A stretch of DNA of 27,936 bases from positions 1-27,936 of the forward strand of contig JAMOVZ010000399.1 in the NCBI GenBank assembly GCA_027061865.1, read 5' to 3'. This document shows, one piece after another, positions 13,161-24,177 of this stretch (the stretch's first letter is position 1; the number at the start of each line of letters is the position of its first letter). The position numbers and the translations under genes were made by a program. This DNA is from Desulfobacterales bacterium. GTDB lineage: Bacteria > Desulfobacterota > DSM-4660 > Desulfatiglandales > Desulfatiglandaceae. The notes under the pieces were generated by a model. The model did not search any database. It had not been told where the DNA came from and saw only the letters and a program-made list of their open reading frames with translations.

Positions 13161-15332
<2,172 letters not shown>

Positions 15333-18016: not shown

Positions 18017-18949
18017 TCATTTCGCCAAAGTTTCTATCCCTATCTTTCGGCCTTTTGTCAGGCTAAGCCACATAAAATAAACAATCATGAACGTGGTCAG
18101 AATTGCCGCTGGAAGGGCAGCGGTCTTTCCAAAAAGGACCAGTGCTATGCCTGCTGCAGTGCCGGCGTTTTTAAGGGTTCCCAAGAGCTTGATGCTTATC
18201 CCTCTGGATCTCTCAATTCCCAAGAACCGGCTCACCAAGTCTATGGCACCCCCGAGGAGAAAAGTGGCTGAAAATGAAATTGCAAAGAGGGGCAAAATGT
18301 CCTTTGGGCTGCTAAAGAAAATCCCCCGGTTTAGGCCTATGATGCTATAAATTACCACGAAAAAACCCCAGTTGGTGATGGGCCCTTTGTAGGGAAGAAT
18401 GGGGCTGTCCATTTTGAGCCGCACCAGGATCTGAGAGGCTATTATGGGGCCCACGACCAGCAGAAGAAGAATGAGGAGGACCTTTCCGGGATTGATAACG
18501 GCGGTGCCCAAGAAAAGAAGGCACAATATGGGTGTGAGGAGCAGACCGCAAAGATAGCCTCCGATGGTAGCCATAAGGGAAAAGGAGGTGTCTCCGCCCA
18601 AAAGGCCCGTAAAGGGTATGATGGCAACAGCGGGTGGCACCGCCGCCACTAGCACGATCCCGCTCCAAAGGATCTTGTCTGAGACCAACAAAGTGCCTAA
18701 TCCGATCAGGACTCCTGAGTGTATTACAAAATTCATCAGGAGTCCCACTATAATAGGAAGAGCCATGGAACGATTAATTCTGAAAAACCCTTTAGGAACC
18801 CCAAGGGTGGAAACCGTCATCACCACGGCCAAGGCAGGGAGAACCCCCCATTTGGTAAACTTGGCCCACTCACCGAAAAAGAGTCCGAGAAAGAGGGCAA
18901 GAGAGAAAATAAAATTCCTGTGAACAAGAAAGGACTTGATTTTTTTCAT
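18017..18949 (-). CDS. Bile acid:sodium symporter (BASS/SBF) family transporter
   Basis: About 9-10 hydrophobic helices, with AAVPPAVA..PFT...GGD and LGTLKNAGTA motifs typical of the BASS crossover helices. Confidence 0.75.
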   Translation of the reverse strand: MKKIKSFLVHRNFIFSLALFLGLFFGEWAKFTKWGVLPALAVVMTVSTLGVPKGFFRINRSMALPIIVGLLMNFVIHSGVLIGLGTLLVSDKILWSGIVLVAAVPPAVAIIPFTGLLGGDTSFSLMATIGGYLCGLLLTPILCLLFLGTAVINPGKVLLILLLLVVGPIIASQILVRLKMDSPILPYKGPITNWGFFVVIYSIIGLNRGIFFSSPKDILPLFAISFSATFLLGGAIDLVSRFLGIERSRGISIKLLGTLKNAGTAAGIALVLFGKTAALPAAILTTFMIVYFMWLSLTKGRKIGIETLAK

Positions 18950-21871: not shown

Positions 21872-22158
21872 GCCTATCCTCGCCTATCCTTTTGATGATC
21901 TCCCTTTCTTGATCGGAAACAGGCACCGGCATGTTTAATATTTTGGCCTTGTCTCCTTCCGGGCCCAGGAGTTGGCTTCCTAAAAGAGTGCTCATTGTGA
22001 GGCTCATTATCTTAAGGGCGGAAAAGCCCCAAAATCTTTCAAGTATTATTCCTGATCTATGGCATGATGTTAGAGCCGGGAAAAAGTAAAAGCCGGTATT
22101 TAGAGTAAAGTGTTTCAATAACGCCAACAGAATAGTATTATTCTTCATAGGAAAATAT

Positions 22159-24177
22159 GTGCAAACAGGAGCGTGTCAATTGAAGAATCAAGATATAGTG
22201 CCAAATCTTAACGGGCTTCACATCAAGAGAGGAGAGCTTAAGACCGTGCAAGTAAACCTGGGCAACAGGTGTAACCAAGCATGCAGGCATTGCCATATAG
22301 AGGCATCCCCAAAGGGGACCAGGATAATGGATCAGGAAACAGCGGTCAAGATAATCAAAAAGCTTGCTGAACTTCCCATCCGGAAAGTCGAGTTTACTGG
22401 TGGAACCCCTGAAATGATCCCTGCCTTCAAGCTGTTTGTGGAAAAACTCTCAGGTGCCGGAAAAGCCCTTACTGTGAGAACTAGCCTTACGGTACTGCAG
22501 AATCCAAAATACAGTTTCTATATTGACCTCTACAAGGAACATAAGGTGAGGATCATCGCCTCTCTTCCAGGCACTTTTGACGATGTGACTGACCAGCAGC
22601 GGGGAAAGGGTGTCTTTAAAAGATCCATAGGGCTTTTGAAAAGGCTTAATGAACTCGGATTTGGGACAAACGGTTTGGACCTTGACTTGGTCTTTAATCC
22701 ATTAGAAACTGAACTTCCCCCGCCCCAAGCAGAAATCGAGAGGATCTTCAGGCAGATATTAAAAGAGCGCTATTCTATTCAATTTAATAATCTTTACACC
22801 ATCGTAAATTCTCCAATTGGTCGTTTCAAAAAGGCACTCGAGGCCAAAGGGCTTCTTGAAGACTATCTGAACACTCTCAAGGCCAATTTCAATCCTGCCA
22901 CCATCGGCTCTATCATGTGCAAGGAATTGATTTCTGTGGACTATCAAGGCTGCGTATATGACTGTGACTTCAATCTTGCCCTTGGCCTTCCCGTAAAGGG
23001 TTATGAGCGAAAAAAATTTTGGGAGATAGACTTTTCTGACTTCTCCCCAAAGATAACCACCGGGGAGCACTGTTATGCCTGTACTGCGGGAAGAGGAAGC
23101 TCTTGCATGGGAGAGATAGCAATGGAATCAAAAATCAGGGATGATGTGAAAAATTATTATGGAAGGGAACTTCAGACATCCAAAGATCTTAAGACCACTG
23201 CATGCTGTCCGGCTGACGCCTTACCCGAATATGTAAGGGATGTCCTTCCCTATATTGTGGATGAGGTGAAAGAGAAGTTTTATGGATGCGGCTCCCCCAT
23301 TCCCCCTGCCATCGAGGGATGCACTGTGCTAGACCTTGGTTGTGGTACGGGAAGGGATAGCTTTATTGCAGCCAAATTAGTAGGCCAACGGGGCAGAGTG
23401 ATAGGCCTGGACATGACCGATGAGCAACTTGCAGTGGCCAACCGCAATGTTGAGGCCCAGATGGAAAGGTTTGGCTATGACAGGCCCAATGTTGAGTTTA
23501 AAAAGGGATACATTGAGGATTTGAAGGGAGCAGGGATTGAAGATGGTTCAATAGATGTAGTTATCTCCAATTGTGTAATCAACCTCTCGCCTGACAAAGA
23601 GGCGGTTTTCAGCGAAATATTTAGGGTCCTCAAACCAGGTGGTGAGCTTTACTTTTCCGATGTCTTCAGCGGCAGGCGGGTCCCTGGCCATCTCAAACAC
23701 GATCCCGTCCTTTTGGGCGAGTGCCTGGCAGGGGCTATGTATATAGAAGACTTCAGGAGGATGCTTCTAAGGCTCGGCTGCCTTGACTACAGGGTCATCT
23801 CGAAACGAAAAATTGATCTGAAAAATCCCGAGATTGAAGAAAAGATCGGCATGGTGGATTTCTATTCCATGACGGTCAGGGCCTTCAAGCTGGATGACCT
23901 GGAAGACATCTGCGAAGACTACGGTCAGGTGGCAGTCTACTTGGGAACCGTACCGAGATTTCCGCATCACCTTGAGCTGGATGACCACCATCGCTTCATC
24001 ACGGGAAAGCCCATGCTGGTCTGTGGAAACACCGCATCCATGCTTTCAAACACCCGATTTGCCCCTCACTTTAAAGTAATGGGGGACAGATCAGTCCATT
24101 ACGGCCCTTTTGATTGTGCCTCCCCAGCAAGTATAGAGGGCGAAGAGCCTTCAGCTGACACTTGCTCCTGCTCGTGA
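22159..24177 (+). CDS. Fusion of an ArsS-type radical SAM domain (N-terminal, about 320 aa) and an arsenite S-adenosylmethyltransferase ArsM/AS3MT domain (C-terminal, about 350 aa)
   Basis: N-half: QVNLGNRCNQACRHCHIEASP, FTGGTPE, YDCDFN and HCYACTAGRGSSC. C-half: YYG..L..S.DLKTTACC, FYGCG, VLDLGCGTGRD, ISNCVINL and GECLAGA. There is no stop between the halves. The true start may be TTG 22180 (AGGAG 8 nt upstream). Confidence 0.85.
   Translation: MQTGACQLKNQDIVPNLNGLHIKRGELKTVQVNLGNRCNQACRHCHIEASPKGTRIMDQETAVKIIKKLAELPIRKVEFTGGTPEMIPAFKLFVEKLSGAGKALTVRTSLTVLQNPKYSFYIDLYKEHKVRIIASLPGTFDDVTDQQRGKGVFKRSIGLLKRLNELGFGTNGLDLDLVFNPLETELPPPQAEIERIFRQILKERYSIQFNNLYTIVNSPIGRFKKALEAKGLLEDYLNTLKANFNPATIGSIMCKELISVDYQGCVYDCDFNLALGLPVKGYERKKFWEIDFSDFSPKITTGEHCYACTAGRGSSCMGEIAMESKIRDDVKNYYGRELQTSKDLKTTACCPADALPEYVRDVLPYIVDEVKEKFYGCGSPIPPAIEGCTVLDLGCGTGRDSFIAAKLVGQRGRVIGLDMTDEQLAVANRNVEAQMERFGYDRPNVEFKKGYIEDLKGAGIEDGSIDVVISNCVINLSPDKEAVFSEIFRVLKPGGELYFSDVFSGRRVPGHLKHDPVLLGECLAGAMYIEDFRRMLLRLGCLDYRVISKRKIDLKNPEIEEKIGMVDFYSMTVRAFKLDDLEDICEDYGQVAVYLGTVPRFPHHLELDDHHRFITGKPMLVCGNTASMLSNTRFAPHFKVMGDRSVHYGPFDCASPASIEGEEPSADTCSCS

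Follow-up and report, generated by a model that had tools for sequence, protein, structure and literature searches.

The 27,936-nucleotide stretch of DNA analyzed here (the window) is the whole of contig JAMOVZ010000399.1 (C399) in the metagenome-assembled genome (MAG) of a Desulfobacterales bacterium (assembly GCA_027061865.1; 2.58 Mb in 498 contigs, 90.7% complete, 3.2% contaminated). It carries a gene, arsSM, that encodes an enzyme of the ArsS family, of the radical S-adenosylmethionine (SAM) type, and an arsenite methyltransferase of the ArsM (AS3MT) type as a single polypeptide, with ArsS ahead of ArsM. The fusion is genuine and, judged by its architecture, is of an already known type, of which this copy is an ordinary further member. 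We propose that ArsSM is bifunctional and would convert As(III) via trivalent dimethylarsenic [DMAs(III)] to DDMAA (5′-deoxy-5′-dimethylarsinoyl-adenosine), with the later steps probably supplied by a glycosyltransferase-like protein encoded on another contig of the same bin. We regard this proposal as moderately probable; it is drawn from sequence, and both chemistries, methylation and adenosylation, are attributed to the protein through its family membership.

The reading frame and the features of its N-terminal half are as follows.

22159-24177, + strand: arsSM open reading frame (ORF), 672 codons from GTG 22159, stop codon at 24175-24177, no internal stops
22167-22182, + strand: probable actual start, with AGGAG at 22167-22171 and TTG at 22180, where the N-termini of homologues fall
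22222-23118, + strand: ArsS radical SAM domain, residues 22-320, a Radical_SAM core followed by a Cys-rich DUF3641 tail
22270-22293, + strand: CX3CX2C motif (CNQACRHC) with C38, C42, and C45
23071-23106, + strand: ArsS tail HCYACTAGRGSSC, C305-x2-C308-x7-C316, from motif reading and homologue alignment

An earlier note on this DNA, made from its letters alone, had described one uninterrupted 672-codon ORF with a series of motifs. The translation bears this out, and all of the named motifs (CNQACRHC, DCDFN, the ArsS tail given above, TACC, YGCG, DLGCGTG, SNCV, and GECL) are in place. According to a profile search of the whole MAG, the ORF is both the sole ArsS and the sole ArsM of the genome. 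Because the N-termini of homologues start at about residue 8 of the annotated frame, and because the AGGAG lies 8 nt upstream of TTG 22180, GTG 22159 is probably not the start; translation from TTG 22180 would give a protein of 665 amino acids (aa).

The N-terminal half of the protein belongs to the ArsS family. Residues 22-320 match TIGR04167, which NCBI names "arsenosugar biosynthesis radical SAM (seleno)protein ArsS," with 366.7 bits (curated equivalog cutoff, 300 bits) across positions 2-303 of the 303-position model, and the genome-wide search gave 369.5 bits for ArsSM. The domain is thus of the ArsS type, as the earlier note had held, and does not fall to another radical SAM family. Pfam matches in this half are Radical_SAM (PF04055) and DUF3641 (PF12345, 160.4 bits), and the DCDFN motif occupies residues 268-272. 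In an alignment of 60 fused homologues, cysteines 38, 42, 45, 254, 269, 305, 308, 316, 349, 350, 377, 472, and 522 are invariant. From the motif in which they stand, C38, C42, and C45 are predicted to be the ligands of the SAM-cleaving [4Fe-4S] cluster. We also built an AlphaFold2 model on the 60 fused homologues (mean predicted local distance difference test [pLDDT] score, 84.7; predicted template modeling [pTM] score, 0.74). The solved folds nearest to its N-terminal domain are those of SPASM/twitch radical SAM enzymes (SkfB, with a Z score of 19.8, SuiB, EpeE, CteB, BlsE, anSME, and MoaA), and for this reason the invariant tail cysteines probably bind an auxiliary Fe-S cluster. The alignment column of C316 is occupied by an in-frame TGA (selenocysteine) in the selenoprotein ArsS of one related locus, L190. 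We considered whether TGA codons inside the stand-alone ArsS matches of the phylum generally encode selenocysteine and rejected this idea: most are plain stops after ...GGAIA, and a TGA at the Cys column of GSSC was found in L190 only.

The C-terminal half carries the features listed below, with residue correspondences given for the solved ArsM of Cyanidioschyzon (CmArsM).

23122-24174, + strand: ArsM/AS3MT-type arsenite methyltransferase domain, residues 322-672, from homology to solved ArsMs and a fold match
23203-23208, + strand: C349/C350 (TACC), with C349 aligned to CmArsM Cys44
23287-23289, + strand: C377 (YGCG), aligned to CmArsM Cys72
23332-23352, + strand: SAM-binding motif DLGCGTG, residues 392-398, from motif reading and alignment to solved ArsMs
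23572-23574, + strand: C472 (SNCV), aligned to the As-binding Cys174 of CmArsM
23722-23724, + strand: C522 (GECL), aligned to the As-binding Cys224 of CmArsM
24163-24171, + strand: cysteines C669-S-C671 at the C-terminus; a CC or CxC ending is seen in nearly all fused homologues

Residues 324-665 align with the Chlamydomonas ArsM (5evj) with an E value of 7e−119, and residues 321-652 align with CmArsM (4fr0/4fs8) with an E value of 3e−95; identity to a solved ArsM is about 60%. The Pfam match in this half is Methyltransf_31. Fold comparison of the modeled C-terminal domain gave Z scores of 36.4 for CmArsM (root mean square deviation of 2.0 Å over 300 residues) and 34.6 for human AS3MT (8xt7). 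These full-length, three-domain matches substantiate the claim of a complete AS3MT-type methyltransferase, and the SAM motif and all four As-binding Cys contexts (C349, C377, C472, and C522) are retained, as had been noted. In contrast to the solved ArsMs, which stand alone, ArsM of the window is preceded by a radical SAM domain of 320 residues and has additional conserved cysteines, C585 and C622 (invariant in the 60 homologues) and C671 (nearly invariant). The protein ends in C-S-C-S, and many free ArsMs also finish with a vicinal CC or CxC.

The two halves meet at a single, well-defined point.

23104-23196, + strand: residues 316-346, the junction with its flexible tether; ArsS stops at ...GSSCMGEIA, and ArsM starts at MESKIRD

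Stand-alone ArsS proteins of the host phylum terminate in ...GSSCGGAIA followed by a stop codon, whereas ArsSM runs through ...GSSCMGEIA into MESKIRDDVKNYYG, the site at which free ArsM proteins begin in the alignment. Since the end of ArsS and the start of ArsM directly abut, the alignment identifies the fusion as an end-to-start join with zero added linker. The segment between the equivalent of C316 and the YY motif of ArsM is mostly 12-25 residues long in the 60 fused homologues, and its sequence is unconserved. In the AlphaFold2 model, two confident domains are connected by a low-confidence tether (residues 316-346, pLDDT < 50), and this tether of about 30 residues is bounded by C316, the Cys/Sec site, and by C349/C350. 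An in-frame ATG at 23122 (codon 322) lies at the junction, with GGGAGAG about 6-8 nt upstream (23104-23124). Met322 is found in ArsSM of the window alone and is unconserved in the 59 other fused homologues, so ATG 23122 is not a feature of the family; from its sequence context, it would be a leftover of the start codon of the ancestral arsM or else an internal start specific to this lineage. If it initiates translation internally, one gene could yield both ArsSM and a free ArsM.

A junction placed precisely between the end of a stand-alone ArsS and the start of an ArsM, with an ATG and a GGAG-like stretch upstream, could also be read as an artefact in which assembly or sequencing errors joined two genes by a lost stop or an indel, and in four related loci (L015, L019, L025, and L028), a single stop is all that separates arsS from an in-frame arsM. 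Against such an artefact stands a separate assembly: a 5,361-nt Logan contig, with a k-mer depth of about 7.8, matches positions 21900-24144 without a difference or a gap. This contig comes from the one public run in which the sequence is present, labeled hydrothermal vent metagenome; the source sample may be this very run, so that the agreement is one of an independent assembly and not of independent DNA. Confirmation independent of the source DNA comes from the 21 of 82 related genome loci in which the same ArsS-ArsM frame is uninterrupted, and the fused architecture is shared by at least 120 protein clusters. The region 23095-23130, singled out in the earlier note as the place where an error might hide, is intact in that assembly, and we consider an artefact extremely unlikely.

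If the residues act as they do in the respective families, As(III) would be bound on C377, C472, and C522 of the ArsM half, with C349 as a fourth conserved Cys, and two SAM-dependent methylations would produce DMAs(III). In the ArsS half, the [4Fe-4S] cluster on C38, C42, and C45 would reductively cleave a further SAM, and the resulting 5′-deoxyadenosyl radical would be added to the arsenic of DMAs(III) to form DDMAA, which would then probably be fed into an arsenosugar-type pathway. The last of these reactions is the one described for ArsS, which attaches the 5′-deoxyadenosyl radical to DMAs(III) (PMC13598754; bioRxiv 10.64898/2026.04.29.721666). In Synechocystis, arsS adjoins arsM and is co-transcribed with it (bioRxiv 10.1101/2022.09.23.509062), and the earlier note's account of separate neighboring genes with ArsS making DDMAA agrees with these sources. 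The ArsM and ArsS of Synechocystis sp. PCC 6803 (Xue et al. 2017/2019, as cited in bioRxiv 10.1101/2022.09.23.509062) belong to the same two families and share the same predicted route from As(III) through DMAs(III) to DDMAA. They differ from ArsSM in being the products of two co-transcribed genes of an oxygenic phototroph, while the window encodes one linker-free chain in a genome of the strict-anaerobe type. Whether the single chain passes DMAs(III) directly from the ArsM half to the ArsS half is a matter of speculation, though a flexible tether that bears cysteines would make such channeling plausible.

The candidate partners for the later steps are located on a different contig of the same bin. 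Positions 2-1240 of contig C34 (locus L097) hold one open frame of 413 aa, cut by the contig start, that fuses the two NCBIfam families named "arsenosugar biosynthesis glycosyltransferase," TIGR04282 (177.9 bits; cutoff, 134) and TIGR04283 (230.9 bits; cutoff, 182). In about 26 related loci, a homologue of this frame is found no more than 6 kb from arsS or arsM, and the composition of C34 is typical of the bin (tetranucleotide frequency correlation, 0.93). The earlier note had suggested that, for want of a glycosyltransferase, synthesis might go no further than the nucleoside. Such a gene is indeed missing from the flanks of arsSM, but the presence of both families in the bin, above their cutoffs, means that the idea fails at the level of the genome. 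The DDMAA made by ArsSM would then probably be processed further by the unlinked C34 protein, and the arsenosugar gene set of the genome would be made up of two fusions, each encoded on its own contig.

Several observations weigh against this proposal. The C34 frame is not linked to arsSM and sits on a 4-kb contig that was binned by composition alone in a MAG with 3.2% contamination. The model, with its pTM of 0.74 and disordered tether, gives no sign of a fixed interdomain channel. The ArsM half stays below every curated ArsM cutoff of NCBIfam (NF008823, 196.4 versus 263 bits; NF040538, 157.5 versus 500 bits; NF038099 [AsSugarArsM], 108.5 versus 400 bits), so that its identification as an ArsM, which we take to be sound, is based on homology to solved structures and on its residues and places it outside those narrow sub-models. 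The ArsSM fusion protein published from a sulfate reducer of paddy soil (Yang BY, Chen C, Gao A, et al. 2024, Environ Sci Technol 58:19266-19276, PMID 39404172, doi 10.1021/acs.est.4c04730) is presented under a title that emphasizes methylation and not DDMAA. As far as that title goes, the published protein resembles ours in joining ArsS and ArsM in one chain of a sulfate reducer and differs in its source, since the copy described here is from a hydrothermal vent MAG. A literature search returned nothing usable on ArsSM results in text form or on arsenosugars at vents.

The title of the sole published ArsSM favors the view that the enzyme is mainly an arsenic methylase in vivo, serving detoxification or antagonism with dimethylarsenic or volatile arsines as the output, while the ArsS half has a minor part or a different one, for instance in redox or Fe-S sensing. 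The same view gains from the location of the arsenosugar partner genes, which are not beside arsSM in the window nor in its six nearest relatives, and from a detoxification-type neighbor, a MIP aquaglyceroporin gene 25 nt upstream of arsSM in the nearest relative (L010:2239-3120), of which the window has no counterpart. It has to contend with the invariance of the cluster and tail cysteines of the ArsS half across the 60 fused homologues, which argues that the ArsS domain is under selection, and with the occurrence of TIGR04282 and TIGR04283 in the genome bin. We therefore see a methylase with a subordinate ArsS half as a possible but rather unlikely account.

Failure of the ArsM half to reach any ArsM-specific NCBIfam cutoff could also point to activity on some other metalloid or a different substrate (Sb, Se, or Te species) or to another adenosylated organoarsenical that feeds arsenolipids instead of sugars. 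A further relative, L009, has a gene for a PEMT/ICMT-like membrane methyltransferase (L009:7880-8500) that overlaps the 3′ end of arsSM, in line with this alternative; the window lacks such a neighbor. The four As-binding cysteines, the identity of about 60% to a solved ArsM, and the ArsS score above the equivalog cutoff speak for arsenic and for ArsS chemistry, and we judge a different substrate or end product to be improbable. A bifunctional ArsSM that makes DDMAA from As(III) remains our preferred reading.

The earlier note had presented the fusion as a novelty, a claim that falls with the distribution of the architecture, which is widespread among anaerobes, and with the ArsSM of a sulfate reducer published in 2024. 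The clusters with ArsS-ArsM architecture (at least 120 at 90% identity) span many phyla; in the best 120, almost all proteins are 559-707 aa long with DUF3641 and methyltransferase domains, and Radical_SAM is also listed for all but two. The closest relatives (69-72% identity) come from MAGs of Thermodesulfovibrio/Nitrospirota, and other MAGs with fused forms are titled Omnitrophota, Planctomycetia, Nitrospinia, Spirochaetia/Leptospiraceae, Desulfurivibrionaceae, and 'Proteobacteria.' Within the host phylum, 248 of the 401 species genomes sampled have an ArsS or ArsM match, and a full-length fusion was found in only two others, G162 (55% identity) and G168 (52% identity). This rarity, together with the affinity to Nitrospirota, suggests on sequence grounds that the host gained arsSM laterally.

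Both domain orders, S-M and M-S, exist among clusters at 50% identity. The fusions with ArsM at the N-terminus and ArsS at the C-terminus are 616-692 aa long (P0122, P0123, P0130, P0132, P0135, P0136, P0200, and P0259) and contain the same two domains as ArsSM of the window. The arsS and arsM genes also recur as separate neighbors in both orders, and their recurrence as neighbors and as fusions argues that they are a functional couple. In the adjacent same-frame pairs, the genes are split by a single TAA in L015, L019, and L025, by a single TGA in L028, and by two TAA codons in L026; where there is a single stop, one point mutation could fuse or split them. Three loci from Kiritimatiellae MAGs (L054, L055, and L056) have a different radical SAM enzyme (CNLRCPFC, with C-terminal CFSCFAYGASC) in place of ArsS directly upstream of arsM, and in L054 and L056 arsM is followed by a methylthioadenosine (MTA)-phosphorylase-like gene, a candidate for adenine removal.

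To trace the two halves, we used trees with 22 fused rows, including the ORF of the window. In the tree of the ArsS half, 17 of 21 fused rows, the window among them, form one clade (Shimodaira-Hasegawa approximate likelihood ratio test [SH-aLRT], 100), while the fusions from Omnitrophota/Planctomycetota, along with a single further one, are placed elsewhere; fusions scattered in this way require at least three changes of state. In both the quick and the careful trees of the ArsM half, a seven-row clade, composed of the window and Thermodesulfovibrio/Nitrospirota MAGs, is nested among unfused ArsMs. We examined a mosaic origin, with ArsS from the main ArsSM lineage and ArsM from a stand-alone Nitrospirota ArsM, and rejected it as unsupported: the approximately unbiased (AU) test does not reject a tree in which the 18 fused ArsM halves form a single clade (P = 0.478), and the quick ArsM tree falls 54 log-likelihood units below the constrained one.

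The host itself is of the sulfate-reducing type proposed in the earlier note, with dsrA (556 bits) and aprA (782 bits) both over their cutoffs in the MAG. Its RpoB is closest to that of a Desulfobacterales MAG (76% identity), followed by Desulfobacterota/Syntrophales at about 63%. Genes flanking arsSM encode an HDOD protein, an alpha-amylase family protein, a beta-CASP RNase, a cytochrome c3, and an SBF-like transporter, and none of them recurs beside arsSM among the 82 related loci. No arsR, arsB/acr3, or arsC is present in the window, so arsSM does not belong to a standard ars resistance operon, again as noted earlier. The Acr3 model TIGR00832 has zero matches in the genome (in a MAG that is 90.7% complete), and the genome has a weak match to ArsC/low-molecular-weight (LMW) phosphatases (70.6 bits versus a cutoff of 174). 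The SBF/BASS-like transporter (310 aa; 18017-18949, − strand), 3 kb upstream of arsSM, is of the Acr3 superfamily; we rejected it as an Acr3 because TIGR00832 does not match it, and the BASS/PanS models reach only about 24 bits. A search for operators and terminators around arsSM yielded no terminator-like site and only trivial inverted repeats. The window also encodes a KatG-type catalase-peroxidase (722 aa; 13164-15332, + strand) in a genome that otherwise looks strictly anaerobic (dsrA, aprA, cytochrome c3, and aldehyde:ferredoxin oxidoreductase).

With the ArsSM architecture published and abundant in databases, this gene adds little that is new for the field. The copy is a clean example of its kind, with a zero-linker join, a Sec-equivalent Cys at the junction, and possible unlinked glycosyltransferase-like partners, and the comparison with its relatives indicates that fusions of the two enzymes occur in both orders and more than once. 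It should be of some value to work on anaerobic arsenic methylation, a process that is linked to rice straighthead disease. The vent origin of the copy hints that anaerobic organoarsenical synthesis is not limited to soils and phototrophs. We tentatively raise, as an outside prospect, that two fusions (ArsS-ArsM and TIGR04282-TIGR04283) constitute a minimal O2-independent arsenosugar pathway in a vent sulfate reducer. There are reports of arsenosugars in vent animals with no algal source and, if such a pathway exists, bacteria of this kind would be a non-photosynthetic source of arsenosugars in hydrothermal vent food webs.

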